Source of the DNA: Eledone cirrhosa
Taxonomy: Eukaryota
Length of the DNA: 64,000 nt
NCBI GenBank assembly: GCA_964016885.1
Contig: OZ024745.1
Location: forward strand, 63,736,001 to 63,800,000
Reading direction: 5' to 3'
The notes under the pieces are model-generated. The model ran no database searches, was not told the DNA's origin, and saw nothing but the letters and a program-made list of their open reading frames with translations. Position numbers and translations under genes: made by a program. This document shows positions 2,516 to 63,423 of the stretch, piece by piece. Every line of letters begins with the position of its first letter. Within the stretch, counting starts at the first letter, position 1.

Positions 2516-3510
2516 TGTTAAACCTCTGTTCTATCCTGTTCGAGTAAACTGAAGTTCTAATTCATTTGAAACCGAAACTACTCCGTGTTTTCTTTCTCTT
2601 GCGGACTAAAGTAGGAAACATATTTTCTAATGCCGTCTATTTCTAGGACGCTGCGGTGCGATTTGAGGAGGAATCCGCTTTTATTCCGAGAGGTTTAATC
2701 GCCATAACATATTCTACTTGATCTATATTTAAGGAGGAGAAATGACTGAACTTATTGGCAATAGAAAAGAAAAATACTAACAAAACACGAAAGTAAGGCA
2801 CATACACATGTCAATGTATGGTTGCGTGCGTGTGTGTTCAATTAATCAGCTGCAGGCTGAATGACCCAGTTACGTAATAGATGCTTCTCAAAATTATACT
2901 TTCCCAGCGTTCAAATAGAATTCTTCTTTTCCTTGCAGTTCACTGGTCACATATTTGACTTCCTTGTTTCTAGAAAGTTCAGACGCGTTAGGAAGCAAGT
3001 TACATATTTTATTTATAACACTTTCCCGTGTGTAGATATGCAGAAACGCGTAAATATGTTGAAATATGCATCTACTTCTATTTATTTTCCGCTCATCAAA
3101 CGATTATTGTTCAAACAACGGAAACGATTTACTCGGAGTGAGTGATTTTATATTATTTTCTAATCAAAATAATGTTGGGGATATGTCCAGGCGTAGCATA
3201 TTTTCGTTATAACATAAGGAGGACGACCAGAAAATAATCAACCATTCGTCAGGAATTCATGGGTTAGGAATAAATAAATATATCGATAAAACTTACGCTT
3301 TCAATCTTCATCCCAAACTACCCAAACTCCTTCATGTGGGTTTATGTCATACTGCAACTAAATACATACACATATGATATAATATGATACATAACCTATA
3401 ATTTATTGAAACAGTAAGAATTACCGACCAGCAACCTTGTATATATATATATATATATATATAAAGAATGATTAATAAAACAGATAGACATCATAAAAAG
3501 GTAATTCATT

Positions 3511-3640: not shown

Positions 3641-3797
3641 CTGGATCATAGTTTTTTTATATTTCTTAAAGGGAGTAATTGGGGAAGGTAGAGTAGAAAA
3701 GGAAGAGAGAAAGAGAGGGAGAGAGAGATAGAGAGAGAGAGAGAGCGAGAGAGAGAGAGATAACTACTACTGGGAGCGTAAAGATAGACCCACTAAC

Positions 3798-5138
3798 TTC
3801 GACGTTACCATGGGCTACATGGAAAATTTAATAATCTACAGCGGGGAATATATAGACGACGCGCTTCTATTAGATAATAACTTAAATAACCAGAATATGG
3901 AAATACTACGCAAAAGCATTAAGAAACTTTTTAGAGAATTGGGTCTGAAAATAACGTACGAATACAATCTTAAATAAGCTAATTTTCTATACGCAACTCT
4001 TAATTTGAACACAGGACTGATACGACCCTTCCACAAGATAAACGAGAACCTTACCTATATTAATTACAACTCGAATCACCCGGTTCCTCGTAGTATTTCT
4101 CTTAGAATCTCTCGCCTATCGTCTAACTCCCAGATTTTCAGCGAACTTGCAGAATACTATAATAACGCACTGGGGAATGCTGACCACCGGGATAAAATAG
4201 AATGCATTGATAAGAATAACCAGAGCACACATAACAACACACGAAATAGAAGATAATGTAACCAGGGCACAGGCATACAAACACACGCATGCAGTACCAC
4301 CAGACATACTAATAATAGAAAATCATCACCAAACTCAAATAAATTACGTTGTAGGAAGTATGTCTGGTATAATCCCATTTTTAATGCTTCGATTAGTACG
4401 AAACAATCTCTTTTATTCTTTAAGTTAATTAACAAGCATTTCCCTAATTCCCATAAATACAGTAACATTCTAAACTCTAAGACTATTAAGCTATCATACT
4501 CCACTGCACCGAACCTAGAAGCACACATAAAAAAACTTAACTTAAAGCGATTATTAAACAACACTACAAAACAAAATATTTTAGACACAGATGGGCATAA
4601 CGTAATATCAACTTCCAAACCACCAAATGGGAGGCGGGTATTACACAACCCACCTGTACTGTTATCAGAACCTATCCATGGTACAGTTGTTACCCATAAC
4701 AAAAAATGTAATTGCCACCTACCAGAGAGATGCCCATTGAAGAATAAATGCCTAGAGTCCAACATTTCTTATCAGTGCATTGTCAAATCAAACGACCAAA
4801 AATGGTATTACGTTGGGTCTACCACTACCTCCTTTAAATCACGTTGGTATCGTCATTGCTTTTCGATTAAACATCCTGAACACCGTTATGTAACTACATT
4901 CGCTAATAAGACCTGGCAACTCCGTGAATACAACCAGCAGTTCACCCTAAAATGGGATAAATTATCCAGCGCTAGTGCATATCGGAGTGGATTAAAATAC
5001 TGCATATTATGCAACCTTGAACTAATTTATATCTTAAAATCTAAAAGCAATATACTAAATGACCGAATCGAACGATCGTTATACTGCAACCACAAACTGA
5101 AGGCTAAATTTTCTCACTATAAAAGTAACTTAACATAA
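3798..5138 (+). pseudogene. Disrupted PLE RT C-terminus/thumb and GIY-YIG endonuclease
   Basis: FDVTMG at 3798, YSGEYIDDALL, IRPFHKINENLTYINYNSNHP, WYNP, CNCHLPERCPLKNKC, SYQC...YYVGSTTTSFKSRWYRH, CILCNLE, ILNDR, CNH; split by frameshifts. Confidence 0.9.
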
Positions 5139-6145: not shown

Positions 6146-6410
<265 letters not shown>

Positions 6411-6562
6411 TATAGATTTTGAGTTTATGTTGGTTGTATACCAACACCTCAGTATGCAGGCTGGAGCACTCGACGAACTGCGCAGGTTGGTTTGGTTACT
6501 CCGGAGTAGTGTAAAATAAAGTTAAATAAAAGTCAAATGATTAAAATTTAGCTTCGTTTATT

Positions 6563-6617
6563 ACTGCTATATATATTTCAGTGACAGCCATCTTTGGCTG
6601 TGACCTCTTCAGGCAGT
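6563..6617 (-). ncRNA. Minimal type I hammerhead ribozyme (inverted copy)
   Basis: Reverse complement of 9223-9277 with one A/G change at the base of stem II. Confidence 0.9.
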
Positions 6618-7546
6618 TTGAATTAGTATGGTATAGACAAGTACATATGTTGTTTAGGTGTATAATATTGTCAATACTCTGATATGCCCAGTTCCTTGTT
6701 GGGTTGTTAATTCACTGAGGAACTGGAGTCATATGAATTCAAACTAACGAATTTCAGTGTCAAAGGTCCCCTTCTCCTCTCATTGGTCAGTTATTAGAAC
6801 ATTCCTCATTCTAAGTGTTGTTATTGTTGGAGTTAGCTTAAAAATTGATAAAATAGTAGAAGGGACAAGGTGTTAAAGGAACAAAATAACAAAAAAAGTG
6901 TCAAACTTCCCATTGGTCAGTTCTGAAAGCATTCCCCAGTCAGAAGTCTATAGAATTCTTTCTGGGGTGAGGCTCCCTGTAGTGTTTTTGCCTGCTATTG
7001 TTCAGTACATTTGACCTCCACCATTATTTTGGTACTGTTGTTGGTGTAGTGGTCAGTTTATATCTTGCTACTGCTAACAATTTAGCAGTATCCAGTTTGT
7101 GTTTTTTCTTCATCCCGCCCGCCACCATCGTAGTGGTGGTGGTGGGGGGGGGGGGGGTTCTTCCATGTATATGAAGAAATATAAGGCAATAAATGAAGAA
7201 AACAGAAAATAAATAAATAATATAATAAAATAATTAATATAATTTGTGTAATTTGAAAATAAATAAATAAATAGAGAATAAAGAATAAAGAATAAAGAAT
7301 ACATGAGAGATTGGTGAAAAAGTAATGAAAATGCATATGGAGAAGTGAGAAATAATGTAGGATGAAGTGTGTGTGTGTGTGTGTGCTATAACCAATCTCA
7401 AGGTCAGAATATGTTGGATAGATTGGTATGAGACAAGCAGAACCATGTGAAAGGAGGGAAGGAGGGACCCAGAGCCCACCCAAGAAACACAAACAGACCC
7501 AAGGACCCCCCACCGAGCATGGGGGAGGACCAACATGTAACACAAA

Positions 7547-7993
7547 ATGAGAACCTTAATCACCCTCTGCAACTGCAGAAACCTCGAATCATGCCCCCTT
7601 GGTATTGAATGTCTCAAGAAGAACCTTGTGTACGGTTGTAGGGTTAAAACCCCCAACTCCGAACACCTCTACATAGGAGCCACATCAACGAGCTTTAAGG
7701 ACCGCTGGTACAACCATCGCCATTCATTCAAGAAGGAGGCCAAAAGGAAAAGCACAGCTCTCTCCGACCTGATCTGGAAGCTTAAGCTGGACAGGACCCC
7801 ATACTCTCTGGCCTGGTACATAATCAGGAAAGTACCACCCGATAAAGGGGGATCTTGTATATGCAAACTATGCCTGTACGAGACCCTCGAGATACTAAGA
7901 GGTGGAAGCGGCCTGATAAACCTCAGAACCGACTTCTTCGGGACATGCAGACACCTTAGAGCCGGGACCTTTCTCAAGATATATGGACAGTAG
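7547..7993 (+). CDS. GIY-YIG endonuclease of PLE (Naiad-like) type, 148 aa, uninterrupted
   Basis: CNCRNLESCPLGIEC, LVYGC...LYIGATSTSFKDRWYNH, CKLCLYE, LINLR, CRH; ATG preceded by an in-frame TAA at 7538-7540. Confidence 0.85.
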   Translation: MRTLITLCNCRNLESCPLGIECLKKNLVYGCRVKTPNSEHLYIGATSTSFKDRWYNHRHSFKKEAKRKSTALSDLIWKLKLDRTPYSLAWYIIRKVPPDKGGSCICKLCLYETLEILRGGSGLINLRTDFFGTCRHLRAGTFLKIYGQ

Positions 7994-9222
7994 CAACACA
8001 AGAAGATGTGAACTCCCCTCAAGCTATAGGGACTTCTACAGAACATGAAAACACCTCTCGGCCAGACCTCCCTCAAGCTATATGGGCAATAACAACACCC
8101 TAGGTTGTGAACTCCCCTCAAGCCACAGGGAACAACCCAGGCGGAGCAGACACCATGATAGCCCAGAGATAGAATCGGACACAGCCATAACGATTTGGCC
8201 AACATCTATAACACAAACACTTATAATTTACCAGATTTCTGACTTTCAAGTTCCAATCTTAAATCTTGATTTCTCTTTATTAATTTGTTATATGTTTTCT
8301 ACCCTCTTCACTGTATCACCTTATATTTATTTTAAGTTGAGATAGATTATAACACAAACACATTGAGTTTGAATATCTCATCTTAACATCTTGTCTCATA
8401 CCAATCTATCCAACATATTCTGACCTTGAGATTGGTTATAGCACACACACACTTCATCCTACATTATTTCTCACTTCTCCATATGCATTTTCATTACTTT
8501 TTCACCAATCTCTCATTTATTCTTTATTCTTTATTCTTTATTCTCTATTTATTTATTTATTTTCAAATTACACAAATTATATTAATTATTTTATTATATT
8601 ATTTATTTATTTTCTGTTTTCTTCATTTATTGCCTTATATTTCTTCATATACATGGAAGAATCCCCCCCCCCCCCCCCACCCCCACCACCACCACCACCA
8701 CCACCACTACGATGGTGGCGGGCGGGATGAAGAAAAAACACAAACTGGATACTGCTAAATTGTTAGCAGCAGCAAGATATAAACTGACCACTACACCAAC
8801 AACAGTACCAAAATAATGGTGGAGGTCAAATGTACTGAACAATAGCAGGCAAAAACACTACAGGGAGCCTCAACCCAGAAAGAATTCTATAGACTTCTGA
8901 CTGAGGAATGCTTTCAGAACTGACCAATGGGAAGTTTGACACTTTTTTTGTTATTTTGTTCCTTTAACACCTTGTCCCTTCTACTATTTTATCAATTTTT
9001 AAGCTAACTCCAACAATAACAACACTTAGAATGAGGAATGTTCTAATAACTGACCAATGAGAGGAGAAGGGGACCTTTGACACTGAAATTCGTTAGTTTG
9101 AATTCATATGACTCCAGTTCCTCAGTGAATTAACAACCCAACAAGGAACTGGGCATATCAGAGTATTGACAATATTATACACCTAAACAACATATGTACT
9201 TGTCTATACCATACTAATTCAA

Positions 9223-9277
9223 ACTGCCTGAAGAAGTCACAGCCAAAGATGGCTGTCACTGAAATATATATAGCAGT
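9223..9277 (+). ncRNA. Minimal type I hammerhead ribozyme
   Basis: ACTGC / CTGAAGA / AGTCACAGCCA-AAGA-TGGCTGTCACT / GAAA TATATA TA / GCAGT: 5-bp stem I, 11-bp stem II with one mismatch, palindromic stem III; AATAAA follows at 9278-9283. Confidence 0.9.
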
Positions 9278-9353
9278 AATAAACGAAGCTAAATTTTAAT
9301 CATTTGACTTTTATTTAACTTTATTTTATATTTCTTAATATATATATAATAAA

Positions 9354-9777
9354 TGTAATCTGAGTTTTTCAAATATTAATAATAACTTTCGAATTCGTTT
9401 CTCAATTTTATAGGCATGTCAGCAGAATGAACACTTCATTCTTGCTCTTGTGTTGGCATGAGAACACAAGGGCCAGAATGAAGTCTTCATTCTGCTGACA
9501 TGGCTATAAAATTGAAGCTTTTTTGCATAATTGCAAACAAATCGAATGTTATTATTAATATTCGAAAGAGGGCGGTGGATTGGCAGTATCGGTAGAGGGT
9601 CGGACGCCATGCTTTCCAGCATAGTTACGTCCCTTTACGATCTGAGTTCAAATCCCGCCGAGGTTGACTTTGCCTTTCATCCTCACGGGGTCGATAAAAT
9701 AAAGTACCAGTAATGCACTGGGTAATTGCTGGCCTTGTGCCTAAAGTAGAAACAATTATTAATATTCGAAAAACTCA
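9354..9777. mobile_element. Foldback/MITE-like palindromic element in (TA)n, interrupted by a SINE
   Basis: Arms mirror around ~9455-9462 (CATGTCAGCAGAATGAA...TTCATTCTGCTGACATG); related to 60274-60555. Confidence 0.75.
9568..9754 (+). mobile_element. tRNA-derived SINE (major family of this window) with 17-bp TSD
   Basis: A box TGGCAGTATCGG, B box GAGTTCAAATCC; ATTATTAATATTCGAAA at 9551-9567 and 9755-9771. Confidence 0.9.
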
Positions 9778-26749: not shown

Positions 26750-27010
26750 AGGTTATGTTTCTCTGTAGCTCGATCTTGCTAGTAGTGCCACGATATAAAA
26801 CTTGGCATATCGATTTAGAATATTCTTATTGTCAGGGAGTTTAGAAATCCTAATAGAAACTTCTCTCGTTATAAAGATAATAATGGTCTTAAGTTGGGTG
26901 GACATTCTATGCCCGTCGTTCAACTTCTCGTTAGGTTTGTGAAAGGTTCTATACATCCCCGAATTCAGTTGTAAAGTTACATCTAAAAGTTACATCTAAA
27001 AGTTTACAAT
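26750..27010 (-). pseudogene. Decayed Naiad-like PLE thumb fragment
   Basis: NFLDVTL then YRTFHKPNEKL...VSIRISKL...YAKFYIVAL, collinear with ORF 4005-4256. Confidence 0.7.
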
Positions 27011-27179
27011 TGTCTCGTTTCTTAAAGAATCCATGTATATTATTCCACAGTGTTGCACTGAATGAACTTAAAATACTAGGGTATTTTGATTGCCAAATGT
27101 ATTTTTATGAGTGCTCCGTGGGCTTATGCAAGAAGTATGTTTAGCTTTCCAGCATATGTAAGGTTTCCATTAATGTGGT

Positions 27180-28944: not shown

Positions 28945-31266
28945 TTGAATAGGAAATCGCCAGGCCCAGACCTCATTACAGGATACTGGTTGAAGAATTT
29001 CACTTTCTATCGGCAAGATCTCATACGGCTGTTTACAGAAACTATTAAGGGCACACAAGAACTGCCCAGATGGTTATCAACTGCCTCTACTCTCCTCATT
29101 CCCAAAAATAGCCAAACCACCCTTGCTAAAAATTACCGCCCAATTGCCTGCCAAAACATCATGTATAAATTATATACTGGGTGCCTTAACCTGTTCTTAC
29201 AGGATCACTGTGCTACCAACAACATCATAACACCTGAGAAAGCTGGTGGAAAGAGGGAGGTGTGGGGTTGCATAGATCACCTACTAACTAACAAAATGAT
29301 TCAGGAAAAAACAACAAAGAATCGCAGAAACATGACTGTCGTGTGGCTGGACTATCAAAAAGCATTTGATAGTGTACCTCATGGGTGGATTGTTAAGGCT
29401 TTACAGTTAGCTAAAGTCCCACAACCATTGGTAGCTGCTGTTGAACGCCTGACCAAGAACTGGTACACCAGTTTGATCCTTAGAGGTGAGAAGGAGCAGG
29501 TTAAGACTGATAAGATACATTACCAGAAGGGCATCTTTCAGGGTGATAGCTTGTCAGTGCTACTCTTCGTTCTCTCACTGAATCCACTATCTTACCTACT
29601 CAGGAAACAAGGTCGACAAAGAAGTGGGACCAGAAGTATCTCCCATCTTTTCTTTGTTGATGACCTGAAGTTGTATGGGCCAAATATCAATGACATCAAG
29701 AAACAATTGGACCTCATTACACAATTTTCAACCGACATCAAAATGAAATTTGGTGAGTCCAAGTGTGCATATTTGGCAGTAAAACGTGGAAGAGCTGTGC
29801 CCTCCTCTAGAAATCTAGAGATGAACGGCCTGACAATACAACCTCTGCAGTCAGGTGACAACTACAGATATCTTGGACAGGATGAGAATGTCAGATATGA
29901 TGGACCCATAAATAAGGAGAGAACCAGAACTGAATACCTCAGAAGAGTAAAGAAAATATGGTCATCAGAACTGTCAGCATACAACAAATACATTGCCCAC
30001 AATACTTATGCTGTGCCAATTCTAACGCCAACATTTGGCCTACTGAACTAGTCATTGCAAGAACTAAGTGAGATGGATGTTAGAACTCGAAAACTTCTCA
30101 GTGTTACTGGGAACTTTAACATCAATGGTGATGTGGATAGGCTATACTTCTCACGCAAGGAAGGTGGCCGGGGTCTAAAATCAATATTAACAACATATGA
30201 GACCCGGATAGTGACACTGAAGCAACACCTTCAACAGAGGAAAAAGGTTGGCAACCATCTTGCCCAGGTTTATGACCATGAAAAAAGAAATATCATTAGA
30301 ATAGCGACTGATCTGGAGGAGGGATATGGAATAAAGCCCGATATAAATCTCTCACCCAGAGAAATCGGAAGATCCTATTCAATGTTCAAACAAGAAAAAA
30401 AAATTGACCAATTTACAGAAAAGGTTGTGCATGGATACTTGAGGCGTAAAACACAGGCCATAGAGGGGATAAACCACTCAAAAAGCCTGGCATGGAGTTC
30501 CGACAAGTTTATGACATCACACCTTGAGGGATATCTCTATGCAATACAGGAACAAGAACTCCCTACCAAATATCTGCTGCACAAAAGAGGAGGGCCAGCA
30601 GCTGACAATAAATGTAGGCTATGTAAAACAAAGATCGAGGATGTAAGCCACATTGTTGCCAGCTGCGAAAGAATGTCATCTCGCTACTACCTCCCCATGA
30701 GACACGATGGGATAGCTAGAACCATCTGGAACGCACTTCGGAAAACAAAATCAACAACAAACGAGGAAGAATATATTGAGACAGATGGCACTAAGGAATA
30801 CTGGTGGAACCTGAAAATAAAAACTGCCACCAAATTAAAGCACAACCGGCCTGATATTGTAGTTTGGGACCACACATTGAAAACGTGTTCTGTTGTGGAG
30901 ATCAGCTTCCCACTTGATGTAAACGTTGTCAGAAAAATACAGGAGAAGGAGGACATCTACGGACCATTGATGAGGAGTTTACAAATCCAGTATCCAAGAT
31001 ACACCTTTAGCTTCATACCCATCATTATTGGTGCTACGGGTTATATACCAACCCGCTTGGACCAAAGTATGACTGAACTTGGATTTGCGGACAAAAAGCG
31101 CAGCTCCCTAATTCATAGTCTACAAATGGCTGCGATAGCTGGCACCTTCAAAATTTGCAAAACATTCTTGCGATTCAAGGGATGACAATTTCTTTTCTTT
31201 TACAACCTTGCCACCAGGAAGGTGGCCGGTCAAAAAATATACTCAAAATTAAGAGAAAGAGAAAAC
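28945..31266 (+). mobile_element. 5'-truncated R4/Dong-like non-LTR retrotransposon (RT, CCHC, restriction-like endonuclease) ending in (TACA)n
   Basis: KSPGPD, YRPIAC, WLDYQKAFDSVPH, GIFQGDSLS, FFVDD, CRLC..EDVSHIVASC, RHD, RPDIVV..VVEISFP; one in-frame TAG (30049-30051) joins the two ORFs. Confidence 0.93.
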
Positions 31267-37782: not shown

Positions 37783-39985
37783 GTTCTTTGTGTCTCAGTC
37801 ATTGATGTTATTTAACTGGAAAGTTTGTTGAAATGAATATCAAGCCACTACCTGCAGCCTCAGATATTCAGGACGTATCGGAGGGTTCTTGCGGTTCCCA
37901 GTAAGCATGCCTTTTGAAGTGTTCCAAAAAGCGGGGCGGGGCCAATTTTCTTTAACCATCCCTGGAAACTTTTTGAGATAGTACCTAGTGCGCCTATGAC
38001 AATCGGGACCACTTTAACTTCATGGCAGTTCCAAATCCTTTTTACCTCCCACTTTAAGTCCTGGTATCGGTTAATTTTCTCCCTCTCCTTCTCTTGCACT
38101 CTCGTGTCAAATGGGCAGGCCACATCCACAATCAGGTACGATCTTTTTTCCTTGTCCAAAACCACCAGGTCAGGTCTATTGTGTTTCAGTTTCTTGTCCG
38201 TCTGTATCCTAAAATCGCACAGCACCTTCACCTGATCGTTTTCTATCACCGACTCTGGCTTATGCTCATATCACTTCTCAGAATGTGGTAAATTGTTTAC
38301 TTTGCATAGGTGCCAGTGGATCACCCTGCCCATCACATCATGTCTCCCGCCTTTATAGTGAGTCTGGGCTAGGTGTTTACACTCGGATACAATGTGAGCC
38401 ACAGTCTCCTCTCTCTCTCCACAGATCACAGTGGTCTAGCCTCCTCCTTGTAAATATGGTGTTTCAGCCACTTCGTTTTGAGGGCCTGCTCTTGCGCAGC
38501 CATTAGCATTCCTTCTGTAGCCTTTTTAAGGTCTCCTCATTTCAACCAGTTCCATGTCTGTGGATCTCTGAATTCAGTTTTCTCAAAGAAGGTACTATGA
38601 AGGGATTTTTCATGAAGGCTGCTCTTTCTCCTTGTTGTTATTTCCTCCTTGGACATCCCTGGTCTATTGTCCTCTCCTTCAGTACAATTCTGAGCATTGG
38701 CTCCTTACTATCAGTCACGTATTTGTATAGGTTGTTTTTCTCCATCTGAACACAGTCCTCTATGCTGATAAGACCTCTTCCACCTTCAGATCTCTTTAAT
38801 TAGAGTCTATCGACATCACACCTCTTGTGGAACATGTTGTAGATAGTCAATAGCTTCCTAGTCTTCCTGTCCATTTCTTTTTGTTCAGCAACATTCCATC
38901 TCAGAATTCTCGCACTGTACCTAATAATAGACACAGCTCGGCAATTTACTGCACTTATCGCATTCCTACCGTTCAGATGTGATTTAATACGCTCCTTACT
39001 CTCCGAATGTATTCAGATCTTAACAATTCCTTCATTTTTTTGTTCTTGATGTCATCAGCCTCCAGAACACCCAAATACTTGTATCCTTCTTCAGTGTCAA
39101 TTTCCTTTATCATCTCACCTGTTGGTACCCGGATTCCGTTGCTTCTGCTCAATTTACCCCTCTTCATCACAAGGACTCCACACTTACTAATACCAAATTA
39201 CATAAATATATCATTGCTGAAAATACGGACAGTGTCAACAAGCACATCCAACACCTTCTCCCTCTTCCCGAAGAGCTTAAGATCGTCCATGAAGAGGAGG
39301 TCGTTGATGGTAAGCTCTCCCTTTCCCAACTTGTATCCTGCTCTCACTTTTCGCAGTAAAATGGTCAGGGGCATCAGGACAAGAACAAACAACAGAGGGG
39401 ACAGACTATCTCCCTGGACGATACCTCTCTTGATCTTCACGTCTCCCAAGGATTCTCCAGCTGAGGTTAACTCTGTTTTCCAGGACTTCATACTTTTGCT
39501 CAAAAACTGTCTGATGTTATCTGCCACCTTGAAGATCTCTAGGCTTTTGGTGATCCAAGAATGAGGCAACAGGTCAAATGCCTGTTTGTAGTCTATCCAT
39601 CCCATGGCAAGACCAGTGTGTCTCCTCTTGCAATTCCTCATTACCATCTTATCAATAAGTAGCTGGTCCTTTTTACCACGGGACTTCTTTCGGCATCCTT
39701 TCTGTTCGTCCAGTAACAAGTTGTTTGTGTGGAGGTGATGGTAGATTTCCTCAGACACAATGCTTGTTAACAGTTTCCACATTACGGACAGACATGTGAT
39801 AGGTCTATAGTTGGTAACATCAGTACCCTTGATTCGGTCTTTCATTACCAGAACTGTGGTACCTTTTGTCAACCACTCTGGTACCTCATCTGACATCAAG
39901 CAGTCATTGAACATGGTTGTCATTTTCGGGTGGAGGGATGTTATATTTTTAATCCAATACCCCTGCACACCATCTGGGCCTGATA

Positions 39986-40018
<33 letters not shown>

Positions 40019-40449: not shown

Positions 40450-43400
40450 TTGGCAACCTACGTAGTAAATGGTATCATCGTGAGCTCCGCAAAGGTTTGT
40501 TATTTTCAGTTGTTTAAAATTGCCATTTATGGAAAATTGTTATTGTTATTGTATATAAGTTCACATACATTGATTTCTGAAAAGGACACTCAAAAATATT
40601 GGGGCCTTGAGCCAAAAATTTAAACTTTTTATAATTATCAAACAAAAATTTTTCTTGGAAAAATCATGGATGTCTCAGAGTCACTCCTTCCTCACAATCT
40701 AACTCCTCACACCGACACCACCATTGTAAATATTGCTACGTTTGCCAACACTGGAAATGTAAGCAGTAGCAATATTTTAAATTTGTCTCAGGCAGGCGTT
40801 CATTTCCCGCCATTACCAATGACTGCAGGTGTTAAAGCCGCCACCACCACCGCGACAACCACCACCCCACCACCACCACAGCGACAACAGAAACAAAAGA
40901 AAAAAAGAAATTAACTCGTGATATCGAAATGAATTCAACCAAAATGAACTCTTCCACACCGAACACCACTGACGCCACCACCACCACAACTGAAACTAAA
41001 ATTAACAATAGCAAAAATAACGATAACAACAATAGCAACAATGAAATTAAGAAAACTACCCTGAGTTTTGCCAGAGTAGCAAAAACGTGCGAAGCGATCA
41101 AGGTAACTAAGGAGGAATTAGAAGAAGCCAAAGGTTTGGTAAAGAAAGATGGGTACAGGGTCAGCCTCACCCACCCACCCCACACACACCTAATAAAATG
41201 GAGCAACGTCGCCTATGCATCGTATCTTATCGGACAATTAACATAAAATCGCGCCGAGTGGAACGGGCATCCGAGTCCCAAATCCAAAAAGCTTTGGGAC
41301 ATGTGTGGGCAAAAAAAAACCATATCAGACGTGGGCAGAAATATGGAACGTGGACGTGTTCTTTGAAACACCACAGGAGGCCGGAGAAGACTACATTAAG
41401 AAGCGACGACTTCACACTCGTCCCAAGCTATTGTGGCCAGAGACTTGTGAAGATCAGTGTGACCCACGTTCCACCGGCCATCGAAATTCTCTGGCTAATG
41501 GCTGCTGTCCTCGCCGGTATCGAGGCCAACACCAAGATAATTGAAATAGCAAAAGAAAAGCAGGAGAACTGGTCCGGATCTGGGATGGAGCACCTGATCC
41601 AAGCGGACCATAAAAGCATTGAGGAGATCCCAGAGGTAATAGACCTCACTGACGGCAGCCACCTCACCGTAATCGTCGAGGGCAGAAGACCTAGGTGTGT
41701 CGTTTGTGGTGAAGGAACCCACCTAAGGGCTTTCTGCCCTCAGGCTAAAAGGTTGAGGCCACCTCTCTTACCAACCCCAGTGACTCAACCATCAACACCA
41801 CCAGCAGCAGAAATGGCAGCAACAACTGTAGCAGCAACAACAGAAGCAACTGTAACAGCAACAACCCCAGCAACAGTAGCAAAACCAACACCACCACCAC
41901 CCAACGCGCCAGAACTAGCACCAGCGCCTACACCATCCACCACGCCACAACCAAAACCAACGCCTGTGGAGGATTTTCCACTCCCCGGCTTATCGCAACT
42001 GGAGACAGATTGTGACGACGAGGAGTGGGAAACGGTATCAGAAAAAAAGAAAAAAAGAAACCAAAAAGGAAAAAATTCTCTCCATCCCCCTCCAAAAACA
42101 AAATACAGAGGGAAACAAATAAATTATCAAACAAAAAAGTTAGGACAGATATGCCACCATCCACACCAGCATCACCAACCCCATCACCACAAACACCAAC
42201 ACCATCACCATCATTAACCCCAACACCACCATCACCAACACCACAAAAGTCACCAAAAAGCGTAACAGAAACAAACCCACAACAAACGCAAACAAAACAA
42301 AACAACCAAAACGATACACTCTACACAGCATTAAATTTGAACAAGGGCGGAGGATTGGCAGTATCGGTAGAGGGTCGGACGCCATGCTTTGACGCATAGA
42401 GTTACGGTCCTTGCAATTCTGAGTTCAAATCCCGCCGAGGTTACCTTTGCCTTTCATCCTTTCGGGGTCGATAAAATAAAGTACCAGTAATACACTGAGT
42501 AATTGCTGGCCTTGTGCCAAATGTATAAACAATTAAATTTGAACAACAACCAATTATTACACTACATGCAACACAACACCAGCATCACAGAAAAAGACTA
42601 CACAACAACCCAAAAGTTCACACCACCTCCACACATACAAATCACTCGCATCACACAAAAAACGTACACGACACTAAAACAAAAATTTCCCAAAGACATC
42701 GGAGACTTCCAACAAACACTCTCCAGGAGGATTTTTAAGGACATCCTTCCGGAGGCGGCCACAAGCAGGGAAAAGGATGGACAAACCATCCTTCCTCTAC
42801 GAGAAGTAAGGTAAGTGGTCTTTCCCATCTTTTCCACTCCATTTCAACATGACCTCACTCAGAATAGGCAGCATAAATACTCGTGGCTTGGGGTCGTCAT
42901 GGAAGCAGGGCCACCTGCTCAACGACCTCAGGTCACTAAACATAGATGTAGTGACCATCAGCGAGACCAGAATCTCCGAAGCACGGGCCTTCGCACCAAT
43001 CTTCGGCGGCTACGATGTGTACGCATCTCCCAGCCGTCCGGGATCGGGGGGGAGGAGTTGCCGTGCTTTTTCGGAGAGGTTTAGATCTCGCCATTCGGGC
43101 CATCTTCCTGGACCCAGAAGGTAAGTTGGTGGTGCTAGACATGACCAGTGGAGACGGGCAAGCTTTCAGGCTAGTGGCCGTCTATGCCACGACAGGAGCA
43201 GGGCCGCCTGATTTCTTCCGGCGTCTGGAGACCTTTCTTGGAACGCCCCGCTCTTTAGTGTTAGTGGGCGATTGGAACGGGATCTTAGATGTACGCTGGG
43301 ACTGTGTGGGATTAGCGGATAGGGGAGGAGGGTGTAAGAGCCTCACCAACCTGCTCAGGCGTTTTGAACTGTCTGACAGGTAGCAATTGGATTTCCCAAA

Positions 43401-45731
43401 TGTGCCAATGTAGACTTGGACAAATCGCATAGGGTCATCCAGATCATATCTAGATAGAGTATTTTGTAGAGAAATAGATAGGTCTAGCATAGGCTGTCCA
43501 CAATTCGTCTATTGCAACTGGCAACAGAACGGGAGAATTCCCATCTCTGTGAGCCGAGGAGCTGTGGCGCTGCTGAGAAAGGATCCGAACAAGGGGGATA
43601 ACATAGATAATTTTAGGCCCATAACTCTGCTAAACACAGAGTTCAAAATTTTGGCCAAGGTGCTAGCAAAGAGGTTGGCGCTTGTCGTTGGTGGTCTGGT
43701 GGGAGAGGCGCAGACATGCGCCATTCCCGACAGATCCATCCACGACAACCTCCACCTCATGCGATACATCGTAGAGAGGGTAGCTAGGGAACCTGGAACG
43801 GGTGGGTCCTTGATCAATTTAGATCAGTCGAAAGCTTTCGATAGGGTCGACCATCTTTACCTAGCGGCAGTCCTGAGGGCGGCTGGCTTTGGGCCCGTCT
43901 TCAGAGGCTGGATCGCTGCCATGCACAGCGATATCTGCTCTGTGGTGAGAGTGAACGGTCACATTTCGGAACCGTTCAACATCATGCGCTCAGTCTGCCA
44001 AGGATGTCCCCTCACGTCCCTCTTGTACGTATTGACTCTCGAGCCATTACTGCACAAACTGGAGACTTTGAGGGGGGTCCTGCGCGAACTAGGATGCGGA
44101 AGATCCGAGTCAGCATATGCGGACGATGTCACCGTAGTGGTGTCGAACGCCAAACACATCGAGGCGATCGGCACTACACTAAGAGAATACGAAGCGGTGA
44201 CAGGAGCAATGATCAACCAGGAAAAGTCAGTGGGCCTGCAGCTCGGCACCTGGAGAGGCAGGTCCATGCCGTCCAACAGCGTCGTCGGGCGCTGGACGGA
44301 CGGACCAGTTAAATTGCTCGGGGTCTGGTTCGGTCCGGATCTCCAGACGGACAAAAACTGGGACGAGGTGACGAGCAGGGTGGCTTCCCTCACCCAGAAA
44401 TGGGCCGAGAGGAAGCTATCCCTGAAAGGTCGAGCGGAGGTGGCTAACGCGTATAACGCGTCCGTCTTCTACTACCGCCTGACCGTCGTACCTTGTCCTA
44501 AGCCCCGCCTGACTGCGCTGGAGCGTTTGCTCTTTCGCTTTTTGTGGAAGGGACCGCTCCGCTGGTCAGGCAGTCCATCTGCTGTCAACACCCGCTACAT
44601 GGAGGGCTGGGAATGCCCTGGCTGATGATGCGCAGACACGCGCTCAGGCTACGACATCTCCACCTCTTCCTCGACGGTGATCAGGTGTGGTCTCCGTTTG
44701 CTAGATGGGTCTTTCCCCAGCTCGTCTCCTTGACGGAGCTGCAGTCCTGGATCAAGCGAAGACCGAGAGTGAGCGCTTGGAGACTGTAATGTCTTCAGGC
44801 GCTCACAGCCCTCGACCAATCGGGCAATGTGATCGGTGGTAACTCCACCTTGGCGTTCTGTAGAGGACAAGTGGAGGGGAAGAGCGACGACGTACTCTAG
44901 GGAAACTCTAGGCGTCGACGAAAATCAACTAGCCAATCTCTTCGGAAGAACTTTCGGGCCGGGGCCTATGGACAACTTCCAGAAATCCCTGGCCTGGTAG
45001 TGCTACCGAGGAGCTTTGCCAGTTCGGGATAAACTCTACAGGCATGAAGGTGCCGTCAGCGGGGCTTTTCCGAGATGTGCGCAGGACGACGAAACCGTCC
45101 TGCACGCACTCATCCAGTGTCCGAGCATTGCTGACTTGTGGGTTTATGTCGAACACCTGTTGTCGCGTGTAGGACGGATCCAGCTATCAGCTGACTCCAT
45201 CGTGAGGATTGCCCCACCCTCTTCCTTTAGCCGGGAAGGGCAGGCAGTTTTTATCTGTCTGGTGGCCATGGCGAAAGAGATAGTATGGTGGACACGTTTG
45301 AAAGGGCTGAAGACGAGCACTTACCTCTTCGGTGATGCCTGATTAACTTTTTCAAAGTTCATTTAAAAAGGAAAATCAGTGTAGAAAGGGAAGTGCTCTC
45401 TTCCCAGCATTTTGTTGAAATATGGGTGAGAGAGGCAAGAATGGCCCGAGTGAATGGGCCTACTCTGAGTATGTGTCTGTAAATTAAAGGTGAAAACTGG
45501 GAGAGGGCACTTGCCCTGGTGGTCAGGGTCACTGTGGCTTTTTAATGGGCTTTCTCCACGAATGTCCCTCGGAAGTCTCCCCCCTATTGGGGAATTGTTT
45601 CATTGTTCTATTATTACATCCTCTGTTTGTTGTTTTTTACACGCAGAAATGCCCATTTGTACCGCCCTCTATTGTCCTGTACTGTCCTTAATTTCTACTT
45701 TATGTAGACCCTTGTGGTTAATAAAGAAAGC
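40450..45731 (+). mobile_element. L1/Tx1-clade LINE retaining both ends, frameshifted and internally deleted
   Basis: ORF1 from ~40666 with knuckle CVVCGEGTHLRAFC; ORF2 from 42849 with SINTRGL, SET, GDWN, SYLDR; RT FRPITLLN, DQSKAFD, QGCP, YADD; C-terminal RCAQDDETVLHALIQC; ends AATAAAGAAAGC(ATT)n. Confidence 0.92.
42345..42531 (+). mobile_element. Major-family SINE inserted in Tx1 ORF1 with 15-bp TSD
   Basis: ATTAAATTTGAACAA at 42330-42344 and 42532-42546. Confidence 0.92.
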
Positions 45732-48013: not shown

Positions 48014-50900
48014 AGTTGCATTTATCTTGCCTTAGGTTCATACGAGTTATATATCAGGTCTAGTTGCATCTATTTTTCGGTCTGTTTGGATGCTAATGTT
48101 CCACAAGATTGAGATGTTTTCTTTTTCAAGTACGGGGGGGGGGGTGATGCTCCCACCAATTCTTTTGATGGGGCAGGTCAAAATGCTTACACATTATCCA
48201 ATGTATGTATTGTGCAGCTCTGTCGTGCCTGTTTAGGTATTCGGTTGGAGCTATAGGACTGCACATTGAAATTATATGATACATGGCATAATGGGTTGCA
48301 TCCATTTTTTATTATGTTGGCTTGGTAATTTTTTGTTGGCCGACATTGATCTTGTGCTGATATAATCAGTCCTTCAGTCTCCGATTTCAGTCCAGAGGAT
48401 ACCAACCACTGATGGGATAAAGGTTTGTCAACATCAGGATTATTAGCTCTTTCAGGGTATTTTCCATACATAGGCTTTTCTTGCCATTTCTTAGCCAGTT
48501 TCTGTAGCGGTTCTTTCTTTGCAGTTACATTTACCTGCTTTGCTTTTTCTGTGTTTTTCATTTCAGCAGTAAATGGAACTTCTGAAATTTGTAGTTCATT
48601 ACTGTAATTTTGTGCATCTTTTGTAATGGAGTATGATCTTTTGATGCTTTCTGTTTCAAAACGAGTTTGATCACCCAATTAGGTATGTAGATAATCCAAT
48701 TGTTGCAGTTTTCAACGCAATATCTAACTGGTTTAACTCACGTCCGCCTTCTTTCCTAAGGAGATATATTCTATCGGTATCTGCCTTAGGGTGATGCATT
48801 CTGTGCATGGTTGAGTACTTTCTAATTTTTGCATCGAGCCTACGAATCGCTGTGCTTGACCAGTTGATGACATTGTAACTGTAGGTTACTACTGGTATGG
48901 CAAGCGTGTTTATGCATCGATCCTATTCCTTGCATTCAATTCCGTTCTTAAGATTGCTCTTACTCTGCGGTAACATTCCTTCCTTATCCTTTCCCTCATT
49001 GTCGAGTGCTTGATTCCGTCTCCTTCACAAACACCTAGATATTTGTAAGTTTCCTCTTGATCAAGTTGTCTTATCACATTTCCCCGATCAAGATTAATGT
49101 CTGAACTTTTCATCAGCTTTCCCCTGGTGAACGTTGCTTTGGCGCATTTATCTAGTCCAAACTCCATTTTAATGTCATCACTGAACTGCTCCACAGTGGA
49201 TAATAGCCCTTACAATTGTTCATCATTTTTTGCAAATAGTTTCAGGTCATCCATGTAGAACAAGTGATTAATGGTTTTCTCATAGACTTTATATCCATGT
49301 TTTGTTTCATTGAGCATTTTACTTAATGGTATAAGTGCGATGCAGAATAAAAGCGGTGATAAAGAGTCACCCGGAAAAATTCCACAATTAATTTTAACTT
49401 CTCCAGCTTCCAGTGATTCCTTTTCACTATTCAAAAGGAGTGTCGTTTTCCATGTCTTCATACTGAATGACAAGAACCTCCTGACCACGGGAGATATTTT
49501 GAAAATCTCTAAACATTTTTCAATCCAACTGTGTGGCAAACTATCGAATGCTTTTTCATAATCTATCCAAGCAATTGATAGATTTTTGTGTCTATTATGA
49601 CAATCTTCCAGTATCATTTTGTTAACCAAAAGCTGATCTTACAGACATATGAGCCTCGTTTACACCCTTTCTGCTCATTGGGAAATAGGTCATTTGTTAT
49701 CAGGTGGTCATATGTATATTCAGTTAGGACTGATGTTAAAATTTTATACATTGTGGTCAAGCAAGTTATCGGTCTGTAATGTTTGGGATTGTTTGGGATC
49801 ATTATTCTTTGGAAGCAGGAATGTAATGCCGTTAACTAGCCATTTCTGGATCCTTAACTATTTCATTGTAAAGTTGGGCTAACAGCTCATGAGACTCTGT
49901 GAAGGCATTTATCCAAAAATTTGGTATTTTGTCTTTTCCTGGGGATTTCCATTTGCTGGTTTTTCTAAGAGCCAAACGCAACTGTTCAACTGTTATATTT
50001 TCCCATATTTGTTCCTCAAGGTGAGCTGTATCTTTCATTTGTCTGTCTATCCATGGAGTATGTATATTATGAACTTTTTCTTCAGCCCAGATCTTTTCCC
50101 AGAATTCTTGCACTTCCTCCTTGGGAGGTATTGATTTAGCAGTTATTGTTGACTTGCCAATTTTTCTGTAGAAGTTTCTTTGGTTGTTTTTGAACATATT
50201 ATTGTCCTTATAGAATCTAGATCGTTTTTCAAAGCGCCTTATACGAGCAACTTTGGCCGACACTTTTTGCTTGATTAATTCTATCAGCATGTCTATGTCA
50301 CTTGTTGATTTTATACTGTATTTTCTTTTCAATTTTCTAAGTTTAGTTTGTTTAACATGTTCACCTACTTTGTAGTTTGTTAGAATTCCTCTGCCAGATC
50401 GGAGAAGGTTTATTTGGCGATTGATGTTCTCTTGCCAAGTAGATTTCTTGTAGGAATTCCTTTGTTTTTTCATTCCACATAAGTGAGTGGTGACTTTAGC
50501 CGACGCATAATAGAGATGATTTAAATCAGTAATGTTTAGTTTGTTTGTTATGATAATGTTTTTGAGAATTATGTTAGTCTTGTGTATTATCTTTTGGTTC
50601 TGTTTGGAGTTCTGGATCTTAGGGAGGGTGTCTCGTTCCCCCATGTCAGATTCTTTCATTTTCATCCATTCGATCATAATTTCATCCTTCAAGTTGGCAA
50701 GTTCATTCTCATTCATTTCTTTATCATTTACGATCTCATTGTTTTTATTTTGAGTTTCATCTTGAGCATACACTCCCTCCACTTTTTCGATCCTTTCCTT
50801 AATTTTTTCTGTTGTCAGTGATTCTGTCCCAACACTGGGATTCGAAGTGTTACAATTTACCTCGTTTTCACTGACACATGTTTCATTTTCCCTTCGCTGA
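48012..50900 (-). mobile_element. R4/Dong-like LINE of another family, lacking its 3' end
   Basis: KWKSPGKDKIPNFW, YRPITCL, WIDYEKAFD, GDSLSP, FYMDD, LKSETEGLI, RPD near 48060; abuts (TAA)n. Confidence 0.9.
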
Positions 50901-51060
50901 CTTTGTGATTTAAATCATCTCTATTATGCATCGGCTAAAGTCACCACTCACTTATGTGGCTTGAAAATGAAAAAAACAAAGGAATTCCTACAAGAAATCT
51001 ACTTGGCAAGAGAACATCAATCGCCAAATAAACCTTCTCCGATCTGACATAGAAATGTTA

Positions 51061-60555: not shown

Positions 60556-60682
60556 TGGCATGCGAACAGAACTGCAGACACTAATGTTTCTGGGTATCAC
60601 CCTTCATCAGTACAGCTCATTGTTCACCTGCCAAACTGTCAGAGCTAGTGAAAATATATGCTATTTTCAAAAATTTACAGTG

Positions 60683-62149: not shown

Positions 62150-63423
62150 ATGCTATGTGGTAAAGTCAGAGTTTCAAGAGTTTCCGTCTATCGCACACGT
62201 TTGCGTAGCAATAGAGACAAAAGACATAACGCCAATAGATTACTTGGAACCACTATGACACATACGCCTGACAAAAACACACACAAACTACCACCCAACC
62301 ACAAAAACCTCACTAAACACCGCAGAAACCGAAGTAGACCTGTCACATGGTATAACGCCCCGTATACTAGACACGTCGCCACTAACATACTGGGAACCTT
62401 CTTCAGGGCTCTCGAACACATAAATACCACAAACTCTTCAATAGACACACTGTAAAATTCTCTTTCTCCACAGCACCAAATCTAGGCCACACAATAGCAC
62501 ACACTAATAGGGCAAAAATACGAAAACACATGGTTGCTCCACAACAAACCACCACCACAACCCAGAACGAAACCACACACACAACACAACACAACAACCC
62601 ACACACCAGACCCACACCACATGACACCAACCGTCAACGTGCCACCACACCGGTTACACCCAACTGCAACTGCAAAAAAAACGGGCCGAATGCCTACTAA
62701 ACGGGGAGTGCCTCGTTAAATATATTGTTTACCGGTGTGATGTCACAGCCGGCAATAAAGAGTACTCATATATAGGTGCGACATCCACTACGTTTAAGGA
62801 GCGCTGGAATAACCACAGAAGCTCCTTCAAACATAGACTGAAACGACCCCAAACCAGACTGGCCGATTTGATCTGGGACCTAAATGACAGGAATATTGAA
62901 CCCCAGATCTCGTAGTCAGTGAAAAGACGCGTGGCACAACTCCCCAGTGGCAGAAACCACAGCAGATTATGCCTGGTTGAGGCGGCGGAAATAATTAAAT
63001 TAAAATCCGCCATAAACTATAGGTCGGACATAATTGTCAATTGCAGACACACCAGGCTGAACACCTTTTCCGCACAAACATTCGGGGGAGGGCAACGCAC
63101 TAACCATGACCCACCATAATAATAACCACCTCTGCCCCGTATCACCATCGCCCATCTCAGCGAATTTATTAATTTTATTTTATTTTATCTTATTTTATTG
63201 TATTGCATGTAACCATTTGTAAGCCCGTATTTTGTATATCTTGCCGCATACATCACCCCCACCAAAAATCACACTAACCATGACCCAGCATAATAATAAC
63301 CACCTCTGGCCCGTCTCACCATCGCCCATCTCAGCGAATTTATTTTATTGTACTGCATGTGACCATTTCTAAGCCCGTATTTTGTATATCATGCCGCATA
63401 CATCACCCCCACCAAAAATCACA
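62150..63423 (+). mobile_element. 5'-truncated Naiad-like PLE (thumb and GIY-YIG pseudogene ~62330-63075); 3' region probably runs beyond the window
   Basis: RSRPVTWYNAPY, FSFSTAPNL, CNCKK..ECLLNGEC, IVYRC...YIGATSTTFKERWNNH, RLCLVE, CRH; frameshifts and a TAG; ~160-bp tandem duplication at 63099-63423. Confidence 0.88.

Follow-up and report, generated by a model that had tools for sequence, protein, structure and literature searches.

Results

The endonuclease cassette of the window (the whole 64-kb stretch of DNA analysed here) is, with a probability of roughly 93%, a single insertion of a Hydra-clade Penelope-like element (PLE) encoding both a reverse transcriptase (RT) and a GIY-YIG endonuclease (EN), in which two 5'-truncated copies are arranged head to head. 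The insertion is likely inactive, and its EN domain was likely kept only because EN sits at the 3' end of the element.

A single inverted insertion with a one-sided tail

The two inverted arms of the cassette, at 6512-7437 on the minus strand and 8390-9328, are 96.3% identical with gaps and differ by five substitutions over 896 aligned sites, in agreement with the near-identical arms described in the original prediction. The left arm (6512-7437, minus strand) is a short 5'-truncated copy that consists of 3' UTR and pLTR only, with its 3' end pointing outward. This arm alone carries a tail of about 100 nt (6412-6511, minus strand), which matches the beginning of the 5' UTR in full-length elements and is 97% identical over 100 nt to the natural copy L045. 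The insertion thus begins at about 6412 and not at 6512, the start given previously. The right arm (7436-9328, plus strand) is a longer, untailed 5'-truncated copy comprising the end of the RT-EN linker, EN, a 1.3-kb 3' UTR and the pLTR, and is 94% identical to L045, which is near full length. Two diverged direct repeats of about 100 nt each (7931-8131, plus strand), found across the family, span the EN stop. The arms meet in a head-to-head joint at 7436-7437 with a 2-nt overlap that is unique in the genome. As predicted, no RT sequence was found inside the cassette by tblastn.

A 14-bp target duplication flanks the whole unit, which identifies the cassette as one insertion. Its left copy (6401-6414, plus strand) lies inside a (TA)n tract and overlaps the element end by 2-3 nt, and its right copy (9327-9340, plus strand) is identical to it at 13 of 14 positions. 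Each arm holds sequence absent from the other, the tail on the left and the linker and EN on the right, so that neither is a simple copy of its partner. An assembly fold-back artefact is ruled out by the target duplication, the one-sided tail and the five differences between the arms. To the right of the insertion, a separate MITE-like inverted repeat of 53 bp (9402-9515; 92% complementary, 8-nt loop) gave an Rfam miRNA match below threshold.

Hammerhead ribozyme motifs

Each arm carries an outward-pointing type I hammerhead ribozyme (HHR) motif, at 6563-6617 on the minus strand and at 9223-9277 on the plus strand, followed by AATAAA (6557-6562 and 9278-9283, respectively). The motif descriptor and the predicted fold thereby bear out the ribozymes and AATAAA signals that had been read from the sequence. 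Both motifs combine a CUGAnGA core, a long stem II, GAAA, a 2-bp stem III with a palindromic AUAU loop and a 5-bp stem I, with fold z-scores of -2.3 (left) and -2.8 (right). Activity is predicted, and the right motif would be cut after 9272. The form with a 2-bp stem III and palindromic loop is said to act as a dimer in the accessible part of PMC4209133. The type I descriptor found three sites in the 64-kb window, compared with a mean of 0.017 in 60 shuffles, and Rfam scans of the HHRs returned no hammerhead family at gathering or E-value thresholds. The third site, a type I hammerhead-like motif at 60573-60614 (minus strand), has a short stem II and is unrelated in sequence to the cassette pair.

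The 148-aa endonuclease frame

The right arm contains a stop-free frame of 148 aa (7547-7993, plus strand), made up of five accidental N-terminal codons followed by two parts of the family polyprotein, its CxCx5C linker and its C-terminal GIY-YIG domain. Over 143 aa it shows 97.9% identity with residues 714-856 of the RT-EN frame in L045. The catalytic residues are present, there are no stops, and the Pfam GIY-YIG match (E 6e-4) falls just short of the curated cut-off. The open frame, catalytic positions and Cys clusters of the original prediction therefore stand, whereas the ATG it regarded as the frame's own is the accidental product of a deletion. More specifically, in the family linker the ATG that corresponds to 7547 is not in frame with EN, and only a 20-nt deletion at 7561-7562 (plus strand) brings the two into register. 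Among the 40 scored candidates of the genome search described below, this deletion is private to the window copy, and a different deletion of 26 nt brings the same ATG into frame in another copy, L006. Contigs of four public runs from one study have the undeleted form at 7561, with family sequence continuing upstream of 7436, and the opposite-strand joint 7437/8389 corresponds in them to normal 3' UTR.

Eleven further ATGs lie within 250 nt upstream of 7547. The private coding changes of the window copy are two replacements, one of them in the Cys linker, and no silent change, too few for a selection test. Singleton changes over 29 copies gave a crude N/S of about 0.58 (44/333 vs 22/96), a departure from the neutral value that is uncorrected for transition bias and is drawn from the best-scoring copies.

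Structure and abundance of the family

A search of the species' own 3.0-Gb genome with the central 953 nt gave 1,648 candidates, 40 of which were scored; all 40 align over the full length of the query at 94-100% identity. Stretches of 10 kb from 37 loci revealed a family element of about 4.2 kb, composed of a partial pLTR, a 5' UTR, one RT-linker-EN frame, a 1.3-kb 3' UTR and an HHR-bearing pLTR. The natural copy L045 serves as coordinate reference. L045 and L035 have stop-free frames of 856 and 890 aa, respectively, which extend from RT as far as the C-terminus also seen in the window protein; Pfam returned no match for either protein. None of the nine copies with the start codon (L032, L036-L038, L040-L042, L045 and L051) has an unbroken frame from it, the frames extending over 35-206 aa. 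A poly-C run near codon 70 harbours most of the breaks, and poly-G runs of the linker the others; genuine slippage or assembly errors in homopolymers could account for them.

Allowing up to one mismatch, an HHR 22-mer matches the genome 5,111 times and an EN 22-mer 406 times, an excess that is the usual 3' bias. A 22-mer from the RT motif gave 357 matches, which are unusable as a copy number, the 22-mer being derived from a rare variant and matching a sister subfamily as well. The family is a young and abundant Hydra-clade element with about 5,100 HHR motifs. The sister subfamily, about 88% identical, has the RT motif region and a portion of the pLTR in common with the family. Two loci, L086 and L087, lie 32 kb apart and agree at 3,022 of 3,022 bases, flanks included; they represent a segmental or an assembly duplicate.

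Other mobile-element remains were seen in the window. An older, more distant Hydra-like PLE relic at 3759-5111 (plus strand) has pieces of RT, linker and EN at 35-38% identity to the family protein, with a 293-aa open frame at 4257-5135. Decayed PLE fragments akin to the family protein, with linker/EN and RT sequence, lie at 62291-63068 (plus strand) and 26783-27019 (minus strand), respectively. Long LINE-like open frames were recognized by eye from the translations at 28945-31182 (plus), 39201-39986 (minus), 41111-44622 (plus) and 49835-50914 (minus).

Placement in the Hydra clade

The family displays the traits of EN-bearing PLEs, namely pLTRs in partial tandem or inverted arrangement, a tail at one end and a type I HHR motif in the pLTR. 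In L045 and L035, a PLE-type RT and the GIY-YIG EN share a single frame, with EN (aa 716-856 of the L045 frame) C-terminal to RT; the window copy retains the EN part only. According to the accessible text of PMC8557442, the Hydra clade is marked by a C-terminal EN, RWK and DKT motifs, a CxCx5C linker, CxxC and CxH motifs flanking the catalytic E and N, the lack of CCHH, HHRs and (TA)n targets. We found RWK, as RRMRWKAF, in eight of the nine copies with an ATG, and DKT instead of DKG at aa 84 of the L045 frame. The window protein has the CxCx5C linker at aa 8-16, CxxC at aa 106-109 and CxH at aa 134-136, and its translation contains no CCHH. Nearly all outer ends of family copies abut (TA)n. 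Judged by these motifs, the family belongs to the Hydra clade: every Hydra motif is present, and length alone departs, the ~4.2 kb of the family exceeding the "generally <3 kb" of Hydra elements, which is a general trait rather than a criterion. The family is a new member of this known clade, which goes unmentioned in the accessible part of PMC13282606.

The linker also sets the family apart from Neptune and Nematis, whose CX2-5CxxC linker and EN CCHH are absent here. A truncated Naiad, as which the insertion had originally been considered, would share the (TA)n target and the inverted structure common to Naiads. Naiads, however, have an N-terminal EN and no canonical HHR (PMC8557442, accessible text), while the present family has EN C-terminal to RT in one frame, a canonical HHR, DKT in place of DKA, and no CCHH. 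The domain order refutes a Naiad identity, the probability of which is practically negligible; what holds of that proposal is a young 5'-truncated PLE with an inverted pLTR.

A protein search with the family protein returned 23 relatives at 32-54% identity, one of them named from a cephalopod. An Argonauta hians entry, labelled "GATA zinc finger domain-containing protein 14-like", contains the Hydra motifs, shows 41% identity to the family RT and is likely a mis-annotated PLE.

EN-only copies as ordinary truncation products

The original prediction had raised the prospect of a non-autonomous family coding for its own endonuclease and two ribozymes and dependent on RT supplied in trans, with the same junction expected at several loci with different flanks. 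A 27-mer across the junction has one match in the 3.0-Gb genome at up to one mismatch, and this single occurrence refutes such a family for the window junction. Thirty loci were fetched, and all 29 top copies other than the window's run upstream into the common RT-linker-EN frame with variable truncation points. They share from 24 to more than 1,490 nt of upstream sequence, and 11 of them fill the entire 1.5 kb fetched. Furthermore, of some 400 EN-bearing arms we compared 65 that contain a complete EN, drawn from loci L032-L098 and the window after removal of four loci fetched in duplicate. In this set, 35 end before the YRDD motif of RT, and 30 reach YRDD or run off the stretch. EN without RT is the commonest result of truncation (35/65 arms), and each of the 35 RT-less arms has its own joint, save for the pair L086/L087 with identical flanks.

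The stop-free frame, an ATG in fair context, two intact HHR motifs and young arms are all features that a trans-mobilized family would have, and the independent deletion in L006 puts the same ATG in frame. These features are outweighed by the unique junction, the private deletion and the lack, among the 35 RT-less EN arms, of any joint recurring with different flanks. The pLTRs point outward, leaving no sense pLTR upstream of the frame, which is also preceded by the 11 upstream ATGs. A read-through RNA is predicted to pair the arms in a duplex of about 900 bp (-1,613 kcal/mol) that would bury the HHR, and both private amino-acid changes of the window copy are replacements. We regard an EN-plus-ribozyme family as extremely improbable. 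Only slightly less remote is a reading that accepts ordinary truncation and lets the accidental ATG express a stand-alone nuclease at this locus, from a host promoter or an antisense pLTR promoter. The frame is indeed open, and bidirectional pLTR promoters have been proposed (PMC3846280, accessible text); the upstream ATGs, the long duplex RNA, the two private replacements including that in the Cys linker, the absence of a selection signal and the youth of the insertion make it very improbable. A small EN-only subfamily with another junction may exist, since scoring covered 40 of 1,648 candidates and the examination of arms extended to about 65 of the roughly 400 with EN. A literature search that covered few subscription papers found no EN-only PLE family.

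Tails, joints and the origin of the inversion

Outer ends of family copies sort sharply into a tailed and an untailed class, separated by 103 nt, and the tail is identical to the start of the 5' UTR. Among 72 head-to-head joint rows from 98 loci, 52 are tailed/untailed, six tailed/tailed, one untailed/untailed (L127), and 13 were not resolved; in a separate mapping of outer ends, the loci of the six tailed/tailed rows have tailed/untailed ends. Joint overlaps measure 0-8 nt in 47 of the 72 rows, with inserted bases in 23 and longer overlaps in two. Target duplications with letters other than (TA)n were found in 7 of 47 insertions, compared with a mean of 1.2 and a maximum of four in shuffled pairings, and this excess argues that the bipolar unit arises in one event. 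Arm divergence is 0.97% within a locus and 2.39% between loci, being lower within the locus in 36 of 43 cases; this suggests that both arms stem from one source RNA or locus, or that conversion took place later. The longer arm is the untailed one in 30 cases and the tailed one in 11, and both are equal in 11. At four joints (L049, L060, L063 and L127), iterated short copies of the adjoining sequence (30-115 nt) were observed, as from repeated slippage in end joining.

We infer from these arrangements a mechanism in which both ends of one cut serve as primers, each with a start site of its own, and the products are then end-joined. A full-length copy would supply the protein that makes a staggered double-strand cut in (TA)n, and reverse transcription would be primed by each 3' end of the cut at either of two fixed internal sites, separated by 103 nt, giving a tailed and an untailed end. 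Both cDNAs would advance toward each other, stop early and join through microhomology of 0-8 nt, and gap filling would yield the target duplication. In the window insertion, the two cDNAs would have halted at lengths of about 1.0 kb and about 1.9 kb.

Alternatively, the inversion could arise by self-priming or fold-back at a palindrome, one arm being copied from the other, in which case the insertion would be an ordinary copy all the same. Such self-priming has been proposed (PMC3846280, accessible text), perfectly palindromic joints at an 8-nt site are common in short insertions (L106, L111, L117, L118, L168, L169 and L173), and arms are more alike within than between loci. The window joint, however, is non-palindromic with its 2-nt overlap, each window arm carries sequence that the other lacks, either arm may be the longer one across loci, and a second 8-nt palindrome nearer the 3' end gathers none of 83 5' ends. 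Self-priming therefore appears unlikely, and priming from both cut ends is the reading we prefer.

A pile-up of 5' ends

The 5' ends of family copies pile up at an 8-nt palindrome at 9104-9111 (plus strand; mirror copy at 6729-6736), a candidate transcription start. Among HHR-bearing arms, 36 of 83 have their 5' end within 11 nt of this site and 16 of 83 extend more than 20 nt past it; these 83 arms from 60 loci derive from the first 100 listed HHR matches, one arm at a locus edge having been dropped. A further 19 of the 100 listed matches lie outside the 83-arm set, and of the ten of these in long loci none ends at the site. In a second sample of 20 loci, 18 of 28 arms end there, one of the 28 being at a locus edge. 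Tailed and untailed arms halt at the same position, so the 5' stop is set by place and not by length. Microhomology alone is argued against by the second palindrome, at which no 5' ends collect.

The site has a CA dinucleotide, with CCAAT boxes upstream at 8924 and 9054, as would suit a transcription start; the accessible part of PMC2377424 locates the promoter and start of Penelope within the pLTR. The pile-up may thus represent run-off at the RNA 5' end. No extra cap-derived G was evident by eye at the pile-up, the few G's being explained by the partner arm, and short tail-side arms, a sample not chosen for this question, show no accumulation at the predicted HHR cut. Candidate counts of 1,365 upstream and 720 downstream of 9104-9111 do not support such a stop and differ in the direction opposite to that expected of it, although very common words were skipped in the search, and the two values are neither copy numbers nor comparable.

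Many insertions of about 550 bp among loci L099-L178 are HHR-HHR hairpins with a perfectly palindromic joint at the equivalent of 9104-9111. That these short palindromic insertions are one MITE-like family is less likely, as at least two sequence variants of the family share this joint and many joints are near misses.

More speculatively, most cDNAs would terminate by run-off where the RNA begins, near 9106, and a long arm, like either of those in the window, would require a template jump to the downstream pLTR, comparable to the minus-strand transfer of LTR elements. As a tentative model, to which we assign somewhat less than even odds, Hydra-clade PLEs would prime from both ends of one staggered cut with one fixed start each, most cDNAs would run off after 225 or 328 nt, and longer or full-length copies would arise only by a jump to the downstream pLTR. 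A literature search, again covering few subscription papers, found no description of such a strong-stop pile-up.

Discussion

Comparison with known systems

The following comparisons refer to the accessible parts of the cited works. The closest counterpart considered is Hydra-1_Obim of Octopus bimaculoides (PMC8557442), which was compared by eye with the supplement. It shares RWK, DKT, YRDD, the CxCx5C linker and CxxC/CxH around E and N, and, together with the Hydra clade, the lack of CCHH, the C-terminal GIY-YIG, the type I HHR, the (TA)n target and a divergent RT4 (MGSSDSAQ against MGAYDSAD). Hydra-1_Obim differs in sequence and measures 2,507 bp compared with about 4.2 kb here. Compared with the Hydra clade, the family has long low-complexity inserts in the linker and a 1.3-kb 3' UTR, and its tail of about 100 nt exceeds the 30-40 bp usually reported.

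Poseidon PAc of Anolis carolinensis (PMC11167929) similarly has two internal RT start sites with a spacing that equals the tail, and an HHR near the junction of pLTR and ORF. Its protein cleaves and extends both strands of AT-rich DNA in vitro, with no difference in start site between strands (PMC11167929). Poseidon PAc belongs to another clade, its starts lie inside the ORF whereas those of the present family lie in the 5' UTR before the ATG, and its tail is about one third as long.

Head-to-head inverted pLTRs with one tail and microhomology joints were described for Penelope of Adineta vaga (PMC3846280) and for minimal HHR pairs of Schistosoma (PMC4209133), with target duplications of 8-10 bp and opposite-strand HHR pairs 100-700 bp apart. 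Unlike in those cases, one window arm reaches EN, and the family is numerous enough for counting. The inverted 5'-truncated partner, the one-end tail, the (TA)n target and the opposite-strand HHR pairs are as such known in PLEs (PMC8557442, PMC3846280, PMC4209133), and a tail often present at one end only has already been stated (PMC8557442, PMC3846280).

Among more distant systems, Naiads share the (TA)n target and differ by their N-terminal EN and lack of a canonical HHR. The GIY-YIG ORFs of Terminons encode EN without a fused RT, as here, but keep CX2-5CxxC and CCHH and sit in giant elements. Non-LTR retrozymes are HHR-bearing, non-coding PLE derivatives in tandem arrays (10.64898/2026.07.22.740005); no such array was found in the 80 short family loci examined.

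Implications for PLE replication

The locus itself is of little weight, as truncation on the 5' side routinely yields "EN-only" copies. It warns against inferring a new mobile unit from an intact domain that has an ATG and lies between inverted arms carrying ribozymes. The origin of tandem and inverted structures and of tails in PLEs has been termed unresolved in the accessible parts of PMC8557442 and PMC2377424, and here the family offers countable rules: one tail per insertion, a target duplication and a sharp 5' pile-up. If true, the strong-stop scheme would explain the inverted arms, the one-sided tail, the partial-tandem pLTRs and the thousands of short HHR-HHR hairpins. The family thus provides a testable hint on how PLEs replicate.
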